From Nitrospirota bacterium (GTDB lineage: Bacteria; Nitrospirota; Nitrospiria; Nitrospirales; Nitrospiraceae), in NCBI GenBank assembly GCA_963703955.1, contig CAVPGK010000010.1:192001-256000 (forward strand): a stretch of 64,000 nucleotides of DNA, read 5' to 3'. The notes under the pieces are model-generated. The model made no database searches, had not been told where the DNA came from, and saw only the letters and a program-made list of their open reading frames with translations. How positions within the stretch are numbered: the stretch's first letter is position 1; each line of letters begins with the position of its first letter. Positions 40,691 through 51,111 of the stretch are shown here, one piece after another. The translations under genes and the position numbers were made by a program.

Positions 40691-41497
40691 TTATCTATCC
40701 GTAAAATAAATTTCCCTAAGAGCCACGGTTTCCAACAAAGTATCTTCTGAGCCAAAAAGGGAAGATGAATTGAGATTATAAGTGTCAAGCAATTTGAGGA
40801 CATTCAGTCTCTCTTCGACGGGGATGCTAATCTTCCACAGGACGTCTTGTTCGGCATCGTTACGGGCAAACACGTCCTCGTGGCAAGCATAATTCCACGT
40901 TTTGTTTTCGTGGACCGTGCAGATGGTGTACTCGCTCTGCTGAAGAAAATGGCGTGGGTGGCCTCTCGTGTAAGGCCCTAGACTTATAATGTGTGGTTCG
41001 TCCGGCGAGCCCACCTTCCCTCCGCCCGTATATTCCCAATACACGAATATGGACACATTCTTACTATTCTCTACGACGTTTCGGAAAGCAAAGAACGCTG
41101 CGACATAAGGAGATCGAGTCCAGTCCAGCAGTGGAGAAGGGAAACCGTGGTGGCGTAGATAGACCATGTATTCGTAAGCCGGTAATCCTAGGAGCAGGAG
41201 AGAGTCCTGCTTCTTAATCTCCTCGTCGTGCTCCGGAGGGGTGGGAATGTTCCAATCTAATCCAGTGAAAGTCTCGATTTGTGGCTTTGCCGCCGAGATG
41301 ATCCTATAATACTGGCTGACGCTGAATTGTTTTTTCTTGTAGCGCTCAAGCGTAGTGGTCAAATGCCAGATATCGCTTGCTTGCCCGCGAAAGAGGAATG
41401 GCGAAACGCTCAGGGCTGTCTTAGCAGCTCGCATCTGCATGAGCCTCTCTAACTGCTCTTGGAACTCTTCCCAACTACCGACATTGACCTGTTGCAT
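40691..41497 (-). CDS. FRG domain protein
   Basis: FLFRGQ, RHHGFPSPLLDWTRSPYVAAFFA, QQSEY; more AT-rich than flanks. Confidence 0.88.
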   Translation of the reverse strand: MQQVNVGSWEEFQEQLERLMQMRAAKTALSVSPFLFRGQASDIWHLTTTLERYKKKQFSVSQYYRIISAAKPQIETFTGLDWNIPTPPEHDEEIKKQDSLLLLGLPAYEYMVYLRHHGFPSPLLDWTRSPYVAAFFAFRNVVENSKNVSIFVYWEYTGGGKVGSPDEPHIISLGPYTRGHPRHFLQQSEYTICTVHENKTWNYACHEDVFARNDAEQDVLWKISIPVEERLNVLKLLDTYNLNSSSLFGSEDTLLETVALREIYFTDR

Positions 41498-41805: not shown

Positions 41806-42475
41806 CTACACCGGCCACTTCTCTTCCTTCCATGCCATCTCCCAAAACATCCACTCATACCGCGAGCTGATGAGGAACGCCTCCTCCATCCGCCTTTTCT
41901 CGGCCTGCCCGGCGTCCTTCGCCCAAAGATCCACCTTGGCCCGCATCCATTTCTGTACCTCGGCAAACTCCGGCGAGGCATACAACAGAAGCCAATCGCG
42001 GTACGGGTGATCAGCCTTAGGTGCTCCGTGTTTCAGGAGGTGCTGTCCGACGACACAGTAGATCCAAGCGCAGGGTAGAGCAACAACCGTGATCTCGGCG
42101 GCAGATCCGTGTCTGCGCGACCGCCAGCATGTGGCGGGTGTACGCGAAATTTGTCGGCGCCATCGGAACGGATGTCATCTGTTCGGGCGTCATCTTCCAC
42201 CGCTTGCCGTAGCTCTCATGCAGGCCGCGCTCCGTGATGATCGTCTCCTCGACGAGTTTCGCAAAGCGCAGGGCCGATTCCGCGTCGGGCGCCTTCTGGG
42301 CACCGGCGGAGAACACTCGTGCAAGCTCTCCAAGAAAGCGGGCATCTTGCAGGATGTAGTATTTGAACTTCCGCTCGGGGAGCGTGCCCTTGCCTAACGC
42401 CACGACAAAGGGATGCCGACGCTGCGCGTTCCAAATGGAGTGGGCCTTTTTCTTGAGCTGCTCGGAAAAGGACAT
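41806..42475 (-). CDS. tenA: Thiaminase II / aminopyrimidine aminohydrolase (frameshift near 42110)
   Basis: HPFV, YILQD, YTRHM. Removing one base continues into GSAAEITVVALPCAWIY..HPYRDWL..YASPEF..YEWMFWEMAW with stop at 41806. Confidence 0.88.
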
Positions 42476-45071: not shown

Positions 45072-45755
45072 ATGAAGCAAGCCATAAAAGCTCTCATCTT
45101 CGATTTCGATGGAGTGCTGGCGAATACAGAGCCATTACACTTTCGAGCGTTCGAACGAATTTTGAGCGGAGAAGGTATTGCTTTGTCACCGGACACCTAC
45201 GCAGAGAGATATGTCGGGTTAACGGATGCAGAGTGCTTTAAGGCAGTATTCATGGCGCACGCCAAGCCCCTATCAGCGCCGGTTCTCCGCACACTGGTCC
45301 AACGAAAAACTCTGCTTATGCAGGAGGCTATAGCAACGGAGGATGTCCTGATTCCAGGCGTGGCCGATCTTGTCAGATGTCTTGTCGATCTTTATCGGCT
45401 CGCCATCGCGTCTGGCGCCTTGCGCGAGGAAATCCGGTTGGCCCTTAAGCTGGCCGGACTGCTTGAGGCATTTGAACACATTGCGGCAGCCCAAGATGTC
45501 AAAAAAGGGAAGCCTGCTCCCGACCTGTACCTCCTGGCATTGCATCGCTTGAACATGACATCGCCAATTATCTCGTCGGAATGCCTGGCCATTGAAGATA
45601 CGCCTCATGGCATTCAGGCCGCACATGCGGCCGGTATGCGTTGCCTCGCCGTCACGACGACATTGAACGCGGAACGCCTTCGTCTTGCCGATGAAGTGAC
45701 AGCATCTCTCCAAAAGACCGATTTCTCCCAAATTCTCAGACGGTTGTCGAACTGA
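45072..45755 (+). CDS. HAD family phosphatase (beta-PGM-like)
   Basis: FDFDGVLANTE, KPAPD, IEDTPHGIQAA. Confidence 0.9.
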   Translation: MKQAIKALIFDFDGVLANTEPLHFRAFERILSGEGIALSPDTYAERYVGLTDAECFKAVFMAHAKPLSAPVLRTLVQRKTLLMQEAIATEDVLIPGVADLVRCLVDLYRLAIASGALREEIRLALKLAGLLEAFEHIAAAQDVKKGKPAPDLYLLALHRLNMTSPIISSECLAIEDTPHGIQAAHAAGMRCLAVTTTLNAERLRLADEVTASLQKTDFSQILRRLSN

Positions 45756-45859
45756 CGGAACAGGCGATGGGCAAATCTTTAACACAATGGTAGCAAAGCA
45801 TAAACGTATTTTTAACACTAATCATCTAACATGTCCTGAAGAGGGATTAACTCGATCGT

Positions 45860-48269
45860 ATGTCCCGAAGCGGTTCTCCAACCTCAGCTCTCTTCCCGAA
45901 GAACGGATCCGGCCAGCTGGCTCTAGATGCGCAACGCATATTCTCGGAGCTGAACCTCGATTCAATTCCTTTTTCGGCTCATGATATCACGGCCGGCTCA
46001 GAGAACGAACTGCAGGCCGCAGTTGCGGGTCATACCGACCATGTCGACCTCCCCATCGTTATCGAATCCTCGAACTACATGAAGAATATTCTAAGACGCG
46101 CTGCGACCGGCGAAAGCCCTAAGCAGCTCATCGCCAACCTTGAAGCTTATCTGCGTTCCCATGCGTCGAATGTGTGGGAAAACTCCTGGGTCCGGTTACC
46201 TGTTTCAACACTGACGCCTTTTGCACTCAATCTCTTGCGCCGTGACATGACCGAGGATAAACGCGACGCCTGTGGCGCTCCACGCAAAGACGTATCGCGG
46301 TTTTTTTTCCCAACAAAGGCAAGATTGGCTGCGAGTGCCAGTCAGCTACCTGCTGAAACTCGCCCTGGCGCAGGCCATTAGCGATGAGGGTGCGGCTCAC
46401 CCGCTCCTCATGAAGGCGGGCGAGCGCTTCTTGGCGCACTTCCTCAATGATAATAGCTCGCCGGAAACGTTTTCCTTCTACGTCATACCTTTGACTCCTG
46501 AGACCGGCATGGGGCGGGCTGTTGCGAAAGAAATGGCGCAGCGGTTCTTGCTGACTCAGCTTCTTGTTATGTACGCGAACGTCCGTTTCGGGTTGAAGGA
46601 TTCCGGCCAGCGCGCTCTGATCTATTTCGCGCCACATCCACCAATTCGACAGAAGGAGCTCAATTCGCTGATTTCCGACTCCTTCTATCGGGAGCTGTTC
46701 ATGAACCCATGCTTGTCAGGGTGGGATCGTGGTGAGGACAAGTTCCGCTACATGCACCTCTGCCATCAGATGCTGTCCCGGAGCCAGCTCAACGCCGTGA
46801 TCAAGCTCAGAGATGCCGGTATCATCACGCGAAATCTGGTTGTACTTCCGTCTACGTCCAATACCAGTTTGGCCAACAACGGCACGCACCTGAGCTTGGG
46901 CAGCCGAACGCTGACGAGGCTACTGCAAGACTGCTCGCCCGCCTTCACTGAGCAACATGAGAAATATGTGGGCGATCTCGTCATCAAGATCGCAGAGCAT
47001 TTCTTTCCTCTCTTTGTCGGGACCTATAGCGCGGCACCGTATCGGCTGGATTTCTGGGATTTCCATCCAGAAAAAGCGCTCGGGTTTCTTCCTCATGAGC
47101 TGGAGGACACACATCTACGGATGCTCTGGCGTCGGTGGAAAAAGAAGGCCGGTCTCAGTGTCTTCGGACATCCGATCACGCCGCTGGGCCCGCTTTGGCT
47201 GGATAAGGCCACGAGTGCCATCTTTCGGTTGAAAGGCGATTTTGTTCCGGACTTTCGCTTGATCGATTATCTGGTGGCGTTGCTGAGCACAAGTGAAAGC
47301 CCCGCGCACGACGGTAGGCTTGGGAACGATCAGCGGTTGAAGCGCGACCTCGCCCAGCTCGGCGTCTTCGACGAATCAATGTCGCTGTACCTCCTCTACA
47401 AGCTTCGCAGCTATGCAGCCATGGGTTTTTCGGGATTCGAGGGCCGCCAATACAGTCTCTTTGAGAGCCTGGTCGACGATATGGGGGATGCTGCGAGTTT
47501 GCAGGCTCTCGTGACCGCGCTCGCCTTCAAATATGTCGTAGAAGGAATTATCCGACACACGGATATTCCCGATGATCCTCTCACGGAGAGCGAACGCCGG
47601 CAGATGATATTCGGGACTGCGATCGGAATCCCGACCTGCAATGTGCGACATAACAGCCCTAATTCATTCCTGATGAAAATTCTCTCGAAGACTCAGAAGA
47701 CGCGGCTGAGCCGGCGGTACGCCGATCACCTGCGTGTCCGACTGTCTGATTATCAATGGGCCCTTTTAGTCACACTCGAGGAAGATGGGGTGGACATCAT
47801 CGAGCAATTCGGCCTGCGGGAGGTTATCAATCGGCTGAGAGAACGGCTTCTGAATTCCGAGCACCACGGGGTGGCCGGGAAATTGACCGCTGGCATTTTG
47901 AGGGAAGCCGGAGCGCGCTCAGCGATGAGCCTATCAGGGGACGAATTCAACGTCGCAGCCGAATCCTATTATCGGGAAACGTTACGTCTGCGTCACCTCA
48001 TCGAAGCGTTTGAAGTCCTCGAAAACGGTGTCGGCCAAATTGATACGGCGAAGAGCAGTACTGACGAACAGTACCGCCGAGCGATGACGACCGTGCTTGG
48101 ACCGAAGAGCGGCACCCAGTTTCTTCAAGAGGCCAAGGAAGAGCTCATCCGGGAGGACGCAGACTCCCGCACATTGCAGCTATGCATCTACCTAACGTTG
48201 CTCATCATCTGCCGAGATCGGGAAATCGCCGTGGCGGCGATGGCAGAGGCAGAGCGGGACTCGACGTGA
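45860..48269 (+). CDS. About 800-aa uncharacterised protein with carboxylate-amine ligase (GCS/PafA-fold)-like motifs; split at the T8 run 46301-46308
   Basis: T8 to T7 joins ORFs 45860-46381 and 46272-48269. Candidate motifs TAGSENEL, NNGTHLSLG, GFEGR. Confidence 0.6.
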
Positions 48270-49303
48270 AGCATCAATATGTTGACCGGGAAACCTCCAC
48301 CGTCCATACCGAACGGCTGTACGGAGACCGGTTTCTCACGTGGGCCTATCAGACTCCATGGGAAGACGCCGCGTGGTTTTGCAAGGCGTTGACGTCTTCC
48401 CGAACTTCCCAAATGTTGAGCTTCTTCAACTATGACGTCGAGTTCGTGGCCGCGTTAGCCGGGGTCCATCGTTTTATCAAGTCTCTCGGAGTGGATCCTA
48501 CCGAATGTCTAGAGGCCCCCGGGACGCTTAATACTCCTCGAAAGGTGTTCGAACGCAAATTGCGTTATTGGGAAGTTCGCCCGATGGATGAGGAGAGAGC
48601 GGCCATTGTCTCTCCATGTGATGCCCGGATGCTGGTCGGTTCGTTTGCCAAAACCTCGGCGCTCTTCCTGAAAGGAAAATTCTTCGAATTGAAAGAACTC
48701 TTTGGAATGGAACGTTCTACATGGTGGGCCGACTTTGAGGCTGGCGACTTCGCGATCTTCAGACTCACGCCCGACAAGTACCACTATAATCATCTTCCGG
48801 TTGGCGGTGTGGTCGTCGACAGGTTCGATATCCATGGCAGGTATCACTCGTGTAATCCTTCTGCCGTAGTCGTCGCATCGCCATATTCAAAGAATACGCG
48901 CGTGGTGACGATTTTGGACACTGATGTCGCAGGCGGCAGCCAGGTAGGACTGGTCGCCATGATCGAGGTTGTTGCGCTCATGATCGGCCGAATTGACCAA
49001 TGCTACTGTGAATCCCGATACGACCATCCGCGCAACATTTCAAAGGGAATGTTGCTTCGCAAAGGCCAACCGAAGAGCTTGTACCGACCCGGCAGCTCCA
49101 CAACAGTCGTTGTGTTCCAGGCGGGACGGGTGTGCTTCTGTGAAGATATTGTCTGCAATCTGTCGCGCCCGTGCGTCGCCAGCCGCTTCTCGGAAGGATT
49201 CGGACGTCCGTTGGTCGAAACAGATGTAAAGGTCCGCTCAACGATTGCGTACCGGCGACAAGATCCAACCCGGCATTCTTTGGGGGTCGCCTATGGTGAA
49301 TGA
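48266..49303 (+). CDS. Phosphatidylserine decarboxylase-like proenzyme
   Basis: GTG start overlaps the upstream TGA; FERKL, VSPCDAR, FRLTPDKYHYNH.P, variant cleavage motif PGSST. Confidence 0.85.
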   Translation: MKHQYVDRETSTVHTERLYGDRFLTWAYQTPWEDAAWFCKALTSSRTSQMLSFFNYDVEFVAALAGVHRFIKSLGVDPTECLEAPGTLNTPRKVFERKLRYWEVRPMDEERAAIVSPCDARMLVGSFAKTSALFLKGKFFELKELFGMERSTWWADFEAGDFAIFRLTPDKYHYNHLPVGGVVVDRFDIHGRYHSCNPSAVVVASPYSKNTRVVTILDTDVAGGSQVGLVAMIEVVALMIGRIDQCYCESRYDHPRNISKGMLLRKGQPKSLYRPGSSTTVVVFQAGRVCFCEDIVCNLSRPCVASRFSEGFGRPLVETDVKVRSTIAYRRQDPTRHSLGVAYGE

Positions 49304-50345
49304 AGTGTTTCTTCTGAGCCTTGTGATTTGCTACGCCATACTGTTTTCTTGGGCGTTTCGAACGCTGCCACAAGAGGATTGGCAATTTCTCGCCTCCCTC
49401 CCGAAGCGCAAGACTAACCTCGGAACCTGGAGCGGCCTCAATCTCACATACTATGGTTTCTTGACCGCCATGGCGGTGACGATCGCTGTCGCGTTGGCTA
49501 TTGTGCTCATGGGTTCACTCTCTTTGCCGCTGATCAGCATCACAGTGCTTGTCGTTGCGCTCCTCGCCCTAACGGTTCCCGCCGCCAAACTGATTGCCCA
49601 GGCGATTGAGGACAAGATGAATACGTTTACGATCGGCGGCGCATCCTTTGTCGGGCTTATCGCGGCACCGTGGGTGATCACACTGATCAATTCCACCCTT
49701 GCACCCCGGATGGGATTCGAATTGCCGATGTTCGGGACACTGGCTCTCCTCGCGGTCGCATACGCGTTGGGTGAAGGAACCGGACGTCTCGCTTGCATCA
49801 GTTTTGGGTGCTGCTACGGCAAACCCGTCTCGGTCGTCCCGGCATGGTGGGGCTATTTCTTTCGCTTTCGCTATTTCGCCTTCATCGGGCAGACCAAGAA
49901 GGTCGCGTACGAAGGCGGTCTGGAATCCGTTCCTGTCATCCCAGTCCAAGCCATAACAGCCGTCCTCTACGTGGGAAGCGGGCTGCTGGGCCTAGCCCTG
50001 TTTCTCGGGGGACAGGCTCTGGCGGCCTTCATGATCACAGTCCTTATCACACAGGCGTGGCGAGCCCTTTCCGAATTGCTGCGGGCAGATTATCGCGGGC
50101 GGAGCGGGCTTTCGGCCTATCAAACCATGGCAGTGATCGGGTGCTTCTACGCGCTGATCCTTATCGTCCTGTTACCCAATGAACCAAGGAGACTCCCTGA
50201 TATTGTCAGAGGTCTGACATTGCTTTGGCACCCCGCCGTCATACTGTTCCTTCAAGCCTTATGGCTGATGATCTTCCTCTACACAGGGCGTAGCAGAGTC
50301 ACTGCCTCAACAATCTCCTTTTCCATCCTTAAAGATCGTATTTGA
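49293..50345 (+). CDS. Divergent prolipoprotein diacylglyceryl transferase (Lgt)-like membrane protein
   Basis: Multi-TM; YYG, GRLACISFGCCYGKP, PVQ, ELLRAD. Confidence 0.7.
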   Translation: MVNEVFLLSLVICYAILFSWAFRTLPQEDWQFLASLPKRKTNLGTWSGLNLTYYGFLTAMAVTIAVALAIVLMGSLSLPLISITVLVVALLALTVPAAKLIAQAIEDKMNTFTIGGASFVGLIAAPWVITLINSTLAPRMGFELPMFGTLALLAVAYALGEGTGRLACISFGCCYGKPVSVVPAWWGYFFRFRYFAFIGQTKKVAYEGGLESVPVIPVQAITAVLYVGSGLLGLALFLGGQALAAFMITVLITQAWRALSELLRADYRGRSGLSAYQTMAVIGCFYALILIVLLPNEPRRLPDIVRGLTLLWHPAVILFLQALWLMIFLYTGRSRVTASTISFSILKDRI

Positions 50346-50346
50346 G

Positions 50347-51111
50347 ATGATGTTCTGGTATGCGATCTCCGCCTTGGCTATCGCTGCGGGATTTGCTTCT
50401 CTCAGCCCCACTCCGGCCGTAGCTTTGAATAATCATGACTCTATTCCGGCGACCTACCCTCAATCGCTGGAGCGGGATCTCAAGATCTTGCTTGATGCCG
50501 CCCGCTCCGGTCGACAGGATAGCGATCTGTTGGCGAGGCTTGCAGAGGTCTATCTCGATCTCGGGGATGACCTGTATGACGACGAAAAAAAACGGCATCA
50601 TGCCTATGAGGAGGGAAGCCGTGCCGCTCGTCGCGCGCTTGAAATTGACGACAGGAACGCAGATGCGCATTTTCTCTTCGCGGCAAACTTGGGAAGCGCG
50701 ACACGCTTGAAAGGTCTGCCCTCTGCCGCCTGGACCCTGAAGGACATCAAGAACCACCTCGAACGAGCCATCGAATTAAGACCTGATCACGCCCCCGCGC
50801 TACAGATGATGGGAGGACTGTTGGCCGAACTTCCGTGGCTGGTCGGCGGTGATTCGCGGGCGGCTCAGCGCTATCTTGAACGGGCGATCGCCGTCGATGC
50901 GAACTACACCAATGCGCGCCTTCTGCTGGCCAAACTGTATGTCAAGCAGAACAGGCTCGACGAGGCGCGTCAGGAGCTCGAGGCAGTCATTCGCACCGCC
51001 GATCCTCACTACCGTTACGCGTGGGCAAACAAATTCAAACCCGAAGCGGAACGGCTTCTGAAAACCCTACAGGAAAAATCAGACAGAGAACGAAGAAGAC
51101 GGCCCGGCTGA
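50347..51111 (+). CDS. Exported TPR-repeat protein
   Basis: Signal peptide; helical repeats (ARRALEID, LERAIEL, LERAIAVD); ELPWLVGGD. Confidence 0.8.
   Translation: MMFWYAISALAIAAGFASLSPTPAVALNNHDSIPATYPQSLERDLKILLDAARSGRQDSDLLARLAEVYLDLGDDLYDDEKKRHHAYEEGSRAARRALEIDDRNADAHFLFAANLGSATRLKGLPSAAWTLKDIKNHLERAIELRPDHAPALQMMGGLLAELPWLVGGDSRAAQRYLERAIAVDANYTNARLLLAKLYVKQNRLDEARQELEAVIRTADPHYRYAWANKFKPEAERLLKTLQEKSDRERRRRPG

Follow-up and report, generated by a model that had tools for sequence, protein, structure and literature searches.

We examined a 64,000-nucleotide stretch of the genome of a Nitrospirota bacterium (GCA_963703955.1, contig CAVPGK010000010.1, positions 192,001 to 256,000; hereafter the window) and found in it a trio of adjacent genes for an unnamed ligase of predicted glutamate-cysteine-ligase fold, a paralog of phosphatidylserine decarboxylase (PSD), and a paralog of the diacylglyceryl transferase Lgt. 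The three-gene module is real and widespread, and the product that we propose for it is specific and testable. With a probability of about 0.65, the trio is the pathway for the lipid BACys, S-(diradylglyceryl)-N-(4-aminobutyryl)cysteine, which takes the place of phospholipids under phosphate starvation; we infer the substrates, linkage, order of steps, PhoB regulation, and topology in the cell.

Desulfatibacillum alkenivorans DSM 16219, which we take to be the same strain as PF2803T, carries an intact trio (locus L083). At low phosphate, D. alkenivorans PF2803T replaces phospholipids with glucuronosyl lipids and BACys, an N-butyramide cysteine glycerol lipid that rises from <1 to ~65% of lipids and gives a head fragment at m/z 205.064 (C7H13O3N2S+); these are the only phosphorus-free classes reported from the strain (Ding et al. 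2024, PMC11181052). From tandem mass spectra (MS2) the authors interpreted the head as a butyramide bound to cysteine, and they reported BACys on diacylglycerol (DAG), acyletherglycerol (AEG), and dietherglycerol (DEG) cores, like phosphatidylglycerol (PG) and phosphatidylethanolamine (PE); the glucuronosyl lipid was without DAG (PMC11181052). Cores shared with PG and PE are what transfer of the core from a phospholipid would give. Glutamate plus cysteine, minus H2O and CO2, gives C7H14N2O3S, with an R-S+ ion at 205.0641. All eight saturated BACys-DAG formulas compared (28:0-35:0) equaled diacylglycerol plus a C7H14N2O3S head minus water; these form one homologous series and count as one match. 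The formula is that of the product predicted by the three chemistries, diacylglycerol + Glu + Cys - CO2 - 2 H2O. All nine OH-labeled rows found in the 390-lipid table were BACys (PMC11181052), which fits sulfoxides of a thioether and also hydroxylated chains. Three of the formulas, those labeled BACys-OH-DAG, coincide as well with undecarboxylated acyl/ether species that are shorter by one carbon.

In the proposed pathway, the ligase would use ATP to join the gamma-carboxyl of glutamate to cysteine, producing gamma-Glu-Cys. The Lgt paralog, facing the cytoplasm, would move the diradylglyceryl group of PG onto the cysteine thiol to form a thioether, releasing glycerol-1-phosphate with reusable phosphate; these two steps could occur in either order. 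The PSD paralog would decarboxylate the glutamyl part at its alpha-carboxyl, the sole site with a free alpha-amine. The original prediction for this locus, made from the sequence alone, had proposed that an amino-acid head group might be ligated, decarboxylated, and lipidated, and our results support this idea with the putative substrates named here. It also counted two neighboring genes as a possible core member and a possible lipid acceptor, neither of which was supported, and it contained nothing about phosphate control, a BACys product, the loss of the histidine equivalent to Lgt His103, or an inverted Lgt paralog. The features of the locus, in window coordinates, are:

45072..45755, forward strand: HAD-IA phosphatase (Pfam HAD_2, 2.8e-30)
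45778..45795, forward strand: Pho-box-like direct repeat TTTAACAC-N3-GGTAGCA, 82 nucleotides 5' of the ligase start
45811: TTTAACA half-site, 33 nucleotides (3 x 11) beyond the Pho-box-like repeat
45860..48269, forward strand: ~800-amino-acid carboxylate-amine ligase of an unnamed family, glutamate-cysteine-ligase fold predicted by model, frameshifted here
46301..46308, forward strand: run of 8 T that breaks the ligase frame
48266..49303, forward strand: PSD paralog, pyruvoyl enzyme (Pfam PS_Dcarbxylase, 1.2e-34)
49293..50345, forward strand: Lgt paralog with two extra transmembrane helices and no His103, predicted to be inverted (Pfam LGT, 4.1e-8)
50347..51111, forward strand: exported TPR protein, TatT/BstC-like (TPR Pfam families; BstC 2.3e-8, under cut-off)

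The gene junctions were as first described (a GTGA overlap at 48266-48269, an 11-nucleotide overlap at 49293-49303, and a 1-nucleotide gap at 50346), as was the position of the HAD gene upstream of the ligase, and the motifs TAGSENEL, NNGTHLSLG, FEGR, PGSST, GRLACISFGCCYG, and PVQ were all found in the window proteins. Scans for sigma-70 promoters and terminators did no better than chance.

The conserved unit is the trio. Confirmed ligase matches in GTDB genomes numbered at least 584, and we compared 84 loci consisting of the best 80 of these and four relatives, a sample skewed to close kin. Conservation across genomes, on which the original prediction depended, was evident in the fixed order of ligase, PSD, and Lgt paralog. 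A PSD gene followed the ligase in 82/84 loci, with both misses at contig ends <120 nucleotides downstream, and the Lgt-paralog gene was present in 73/84, with nine misses at a contig edge and two without it within 10 kb. Hosts included Nitrospirota, Geobacteraceae, Syntrophales, Desulfobacterales, Brocadiales (anammox), and Desulfobacterota. The trio is accessory and patchily present: sampled genomes contained the ligase in 9 of 251 cases for the host phylum (Nitrospirota) and 35 of 301 for the phylum of D. alkenivorans. The nearest ligase relatives among the matches listed were Nitrospirales proteins of 61-69% identity, which makes a Nitrospiraceae host probable. In the ligase tree all 12 Nitrospirota rows plus the window protein fell on one side of a branch with support of 97 (FastTree, midpoint root), so recent transfer was not indicated. 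In some Nitrospirales the operon has decayed, by ligase stops, by a deletion that took PSD with most of the Lgt paralog, or by reduction to a lone fragment (G274, locus L153; G228, L154; G283, L155), and in G007 (L152) every gene was broken by frameshifts.

Among the 80 GTDB loci, a fusion of a PHP-like N-terminus with a GT4 glycosyltransferase lay near the trio in 17 (for example L070:4456-6897), and 12 loci had a zinc phospholipase C there (for example L067:14943-15887); these are candidates for glucuronosyl lipid synthesis and phospholipid breakdown, respectively. An exported 254-amino-acid protein with no Pfam match was near the trio in 14/80 loci (L070:7031-7792). In D. alkenivorans, three genes with glutamate-synthase domains (L083:1940-8660) were transcribed divergently from the trio.

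Ligase. The large window protein had no Pfam match below E 0.1, and six intact members had no family at E <= 0.01. NCBIfam, sequence and profile searches of the PDB, and the protein atlas likewise left it unnamed, and only fold prediction placed it. We modeled the intact homolog P0003, which is 69% identical to the window protein over the C-terminal piece (pLDDT 88.9). In VIA-align the best match was GshF (Z 16.1, root-mean-square deviation 4.1, 382 aligned), followed by GshA and YbdK-type proteins (both 15.3) and Dop and PafA (both 14.1); the 18 best rows and more, from Z 16.1 to 5.9, were of the GS/GCS fold, and the first unrelated protein scored 4.6. Foldseek also ranked the GS/GCS family at the top, below significance. 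The fold that had been suspected from three short motifs was thus borne out by structure prediction and structural alignment. The GshA (PF04262) and GCS2 (PF04107) profiles found nothing in 5/5 trio genomes, including D. alkenivorans. Residues E49, E51, H345, R518, E529, and R531 were conserved in 104/104 sequences. Features listed for GS/GCS proteins are GhExE on the first strand, an acidic residue on each of the next two, [HD]x[NH] on the fourth, Arg on the fifth, and Ex[RK]x2D on the sixth (PMC2588565). With strands equated by order rather than residue-level superposition, the ligase had G47, E49, and E51 (104/104) on modeled strand 44-51, acidic residues D64 (103/104) and E108 (97/104) for strands 2 and 3, and R518 (104/104) for strand 5. 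On this model it is a predicted carboxylate-amine ligase outside the GshA and GCS2 profile families.

The ligase copy in the source genome is broken or mis-assembled. It falls into two open reading frames, 45860-46381 and 46272-48269, where the run of 8 T shifts the frame, while 75 of the 80 related GTDB loci had a single frame of 730-900 amino acids; the other five comprise four that reach the end of a contig and one broken copy. Either 7 or 10 T would restore the frame, and homolog spacing agrees with 10. An independent soil run (X3) gave one depth-3 contig with 9 T, likewise out of frame, and the T run was the only one of 32 tested places in the genome with a frame change. Assembly error, slipped-strand switching, and decay are all possible. 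A second gene of the window, tenA (thiaminase II family; 42017-42475, reverse strand), is also split, matching only positions 2-115 of a 210-position profile and leaving frame near 42110, which points to assembly errors, but the operon is also decayed in the other Nitrospirales genomes named above.

PSD paralog. The second enzyme is a paralog, as first proposed, since a separate housekeeping psd is present in the source genome (G000:C20:45523), beside a gene that is presumably pssA. The trio protein scored over the cut-off for PF02666, matched the Escherichia coli Psd profile at 8e-19, and was below cut-off for all NCBIfam psd models. D119, H173, H176, and S278 were conserved in 67/67 sequences, of which D119, H173, and S278 form the Asp-His-Ser maturation triad. 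S278 is probably the pyruvoyl precursor; we assume its register from a GGST-type site and from one member with Gly at 277. Counterparts of E. coli D90, H144, and H147, whose roles are described for PDB 7cnw (PMC7952604), are present as well. The LGST cleavage motif is replaced by PGSST, which the original prediction took as a sign of a shifted substrate; it is a weak sign, and PGSST is probably just a cleavage site of the usual GGST type. Replacement of Tyr137 by Arg is likewise a weak sign of a new substrate because Arg occupies this position in 15% of PSDs (PMC7952604). Lys at the D142 position and Asn at the V146 position, beside the active-site histidines, hint at a different substrate. 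Inspection by eye found no signal peptide or transmembrane stretch, and E. coli Psd acts at the cytoplasmic side (PMC7952604). At window position 49258 the X2 and X4 contigs are two bases shorter, which changes only the last PSD residues (343 vs 345 amino acids).

Lgt paralog. In the source genome, which is 82% complete, canonical lgt was not detected, so that of the two housekeeping genes expected elsewhere only psd was found. All five trio-bearing relatives contained canonical lgt and another psd, which supports paralog status for the Lgt of the trio. Its model (pLDDT 94.7) clearly matched a single structure, E. coli Lgt 5azc (Z 12.9, the second-best 6.3; Foldseek 1.6e-3). A profile of the paralog against PDB sequences gave no Lgt match, and a local profile alignment with Lgt was weak (probability 32%). 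We transferred residue numbering with the help of motifs in 12 canonical Lgts from relatives. R165, R257, E261, and R264 were present in 67/67 sequences, equivalent to E. coli R143, R239, E243, and R246 at the donor site (PMC4728403). The H103GGL motif, in which His103 is essential and part of peptide binding in E. coli (PMC4728403), was lost, with Val at that column in 51/67, as was the NFINGE signature. The Lgt signature GRLGNFINGELWG was likewise not found in the paralog, which has GRLACISFGCCYG instead, with C168, C173, and C174 in 67/67 sequences; we speculate that the three, invariant and next to R165, might stand in for His103. D. alkenivorans has a third Lgt-like gene (L127:1468-2307, E 8e-21) and a third PSD-like gene of 420 amino acids (L131:348-1607) with a possible signal peptide.

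The paralog has one extra helix at each end, and its charge pattern is inverted. Computed from the sequences by the positive-inside rule, Lys and Arg numbered 19.6 on the active-site side vs 2.4 on the opposite side in all 67 sequences, which are kin, and still 10.2 on the active-site side without the head and the arginine-bearing loop. The 12 canonical Lgts had 5.3 on the active-site side vs 10.5 opposite, and the inverted pattern was found in 67/67 paralogs vs 0/12 canonical Lgts. By this rule, the charge bias predicts that the paralog is inverted, with its active site facing the cytoplasm, where the ATP-dependent ligase and PSD act. On the predicted topology the active site is not in the periplasmic half, where that of E. 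coli Lgt lies (PMC4728403).

Phosphate control. The trio is apparently switched on by phosphate shortage. Phosphate transport or polyphosphate genes were present in 21 of 52 loci of at least 15 kb vs 4% of random 22-kb windows of the source genome, a control from one genome with a PstB query that also catches other ABC ATPases. Repeats of 11 bp occurred in 24/70 upstream regions vs 8.3 in shuffles. With a motif learned from these 70 regions, the window site scored 13.8 bits (rank 13 in the genome) and 8/26 top genome hits fell in the pst/pit/ppk island. With a matrix from non-Nitrospirota sites only, it scored 11.4 bits (rank 65 of 127 hits) and 9/20 top hits fell in this island, which is 1.3% of the genome; some of the hits are adjacent sites. 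That the motif picks out the island supports its reading as the local Pho box. The island (G000:C17:341857-384688) contains two pstS, pstA/C, pit, ppk, psiE, and many Pho-box-like motifs; unannotated lipoprotein-like genes lie behind strong boxes at C17:355672, 356678, and 357411. Direct repeats with an 11-bp period are thus shared with pst genes, as in a Pho regulon, and the D. alkenivorans trio has a 15.4-bit box upstream.

Other readings of the trio were weighed against the BACys pathway. It is unlikely that the trio makes another phosphorus-free aminolipid, with a different amine or thiol acceptor or an O- or N-linkage, and that BACys comes from other genes. Loss of His103 and NFINGE would suit such a product, as would a ligase whose substrates are unreadable from a fold match at 10-14% identity and the further Lgt-like and PSD-like genes of D. 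alkenivorans, but those genes are on different contigs, the strain has only BACys and glucuronosyl lipids as reported phosphorus-free classes, and the formula match needs no free parameter. The identical formula C7H14N2O3S would also result if the Lgt paralog made S-diacylglyceryl-cysteine, a phosphate-free mimic of phosphatidylserine (PS), the PSD paralog turned it into S-diacylglyceryl-cysteamine, a mimic of PE, and the ligase gamma-glutamylated the amine. The first intermediate would be nearer PS in shape, and since 413 of 806 ligase residues align to the GshA core, the several hundred extra residues could bind a membrane substrate. We consider this isomer quite doubtful because the MS2 reading of butyramide-cysteine better fits 4-aminobutyryl-Cys and 0 rows found in the table were one-nitrogen sulfur lipids (O4, O5, or O6 with N and S; PMC11181052).

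Lipidation of a protein or peptide, with the Lgt paralog acting on the TPR partner or another protein and the ligase being PafA-like, had been the second idea of the original prediction. The PafA/Dop match at Z 14.1 and the position of the TPR gene, 3' of the trio in Nitrospirales, would agree with it. The TPR protein contains no cysteine and therefore is not the lipid acceptor, it is missing from all non-Nitrospirota loci, and it is exported while the Lgt active site is predicted to be cytoplasmic; in addition, the HGGL motif for peptide binding has lost its His103 and the decarboxylase would have no role. This makes protein lipidation very improbable. We give as little credence to a chance-like grouping in which a synthetase for the thiol gamma-Glu-Cys sits with surplus housekeeping PSD and Lgt genes. 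Such a grouping would explain why GshA and GCS2 are missing from 5/5 trio genomes and canonical lgt was not found in the source genome, and it conflicts with the fixed gene order across phyla, canonical psd and lgt in 5/5 trio-bearing relatives and D. alkenivorans, patchy presence (9/251 Nitrospirota), and the phosphate-type box.

Several points weigh against the BACys pathway itself. The structure of BACys is called 'tentative' and 'thioether' does not occur in the main text (PMC11181052). Other heads of equal formula are gamma-glutamyl-cysteamine, a free thiol bound through an ester, Gly-Met, Ala-homoCys, and Asp-homoCys minus CO2, and no undecarboxylated DAG intermediate (O9 N2 S) was among the table rows found. 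The link between trio and lipid comes from one producing strain. The loss of His103 would leave activation of the thiol without explanation. At E <= 0.001 Foldseek had no hit for the ligase or Lgt-paralog model, two ligase strand motifs deviate (HxS vs [HD]x[NH], and ExRxxS vs Ex[RK]xxD, with Ser at the final position), and the modeled GS/GCS fold, with Dop and PafA at Z 14.1, would leave the ligase substrates unfixed. The trio is frameshifted here and decayed in three Nitrospirales genomes, and 3 of 11 other Nitrospirota loci had a box of <6 bits 5' of the ligase.

The TPR and HAD genes are Nitrospirales add-ons. Each lay beside the trio in 9/84 loci (for HAD, a close homolog), all Nitrospirota. 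The TPR gene was 3' of the trio in 6/6 trio-bearing genomes examined, and close homologs were frequent in Nitrospirales without the trio. Protein-atlas neighbors of the TPR protein were named TatT/RMD1-3, and it is possibly lipid-binding. Further paralogs occur in the source genome at C6:180228-180872 (44% identical) and C17:145337-145840 (30% identical). The HAD gene, proposed at first as a possible operon member, was rejected as a core gene here, being upstream of the Pho-box-like site with no box of its own, but in locus L020 the best box precedes HAD. HAD homologs of 50-54% identity were found in 8/9 family-f3 genomes with no ligase hit. As a Nitrospirales neighbor, the phosphatase could release the phosphate of glycerol-1-phosphate. 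Around TPR and HAD homologs that stand alone, no clear conserved partner emerged, and many antisense open reading frames were present. Elsewhere in the window, an FRG-domain protein lies between thiD and tenA (40691-41497, reverse strand).

If the BACys pathway is correct, cells of hundreds of species, including sulfate reducers, Geobacteraceae, anammox bacteria, and relatives of nitrite oxidizers, could swap phospholipid phosphate for a thioether and recover the phosphate. The trio would offer genes for an orphan lipid that reaches about two thirds of the phosphate-starved membrane, and would add a new family of glutamate-cysteine-ligase fold, an Lgt-fold enzyme that acts on small molecules, and an enzyme superfamily with members of opposite topology. 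Detection of the ligase could flag phosphorus stress in sediments and soils. We put at slightly better than even the odds that the trio is the missing BACys pathway and a new route to a bulk membrane lipid, built on an Lgt-superfamily enzyme that was flipped by an extra N-terminal helix and, though lacking the catalytic histidine, alkylates a small thiol in the cytoplasm, perhaps with a three-cysteine site. The route would be a new one among the known ways of replacing lipids under phosphate starvation, and its chemistry may be unprecedented in the Lgt fold. In the literature searched, to which most subscription papers did not belong, the trio was undescribed and no paper named genes for BACys, a word that occurred with lipid only in PMC11181052.

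Each part of the trio has a known counterpart. The ligase shares its fold with GshA, the GshF N-domain, and YbdK (PDB 1v4g, 3ln7, and 1tt4; Z 15-16, 338-413 residues aligned) and keeps GxExE, His, Arg, and ExR, but differs in its 10-14% identity, lack of a Pfam match, length of ~800 amino acids, HxS/ExRxxS variants, and lipid-enzyme operon. The PSD paralog is like E. coli Psd (7cnw) in its D90, H144, and H147 equivalents and cleavage-site serine, and unlike it in the PGSST site, Lys at D142, Asn at V146, and being a second copy besides housekeeping psd. The Lgt paralog has the fold and R143/R239/E243/R246 network of E. coli Lgt (PDB 5azb/5azc; PMC4728403), from which it differs by the lost His103, the signature GRLACISFGCCYG, two extra helices, a predicted inverted topology, and a proposed small-molecule acceptor. 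The BACys system of D. alkenivorans corresponds to the trio in that the lipid formula equals the predicted product, the lipid is induced by phosphate limitation, and the strain carries the trio; on the other side, the main text of PMC11181052, in the parts examined, names no biosynthetic genes, and the structure is tentative, and BACys was not reported from Nitrospirales in the literature searched.

Bacteria are known to replace phospholipids under phosphate starvation with ornithine lipid (OlsBA), betaine lipid (BtaAB), sulfoquinovosyldiacylglycerol (SQDG), and glycolipids with PlcP. Such replacement is treated in an aminolipid review (PMC11631085). The trio resembles these systems in purpose, Pho-type control, and its phospholipase C and glycosyltransferase neighbors, and differs from them in the proposed thioether to glycerol, made by an Lgt-type enzyme, and in a peptide head that would be trimmed by a pyruvoyl decarboxylase.

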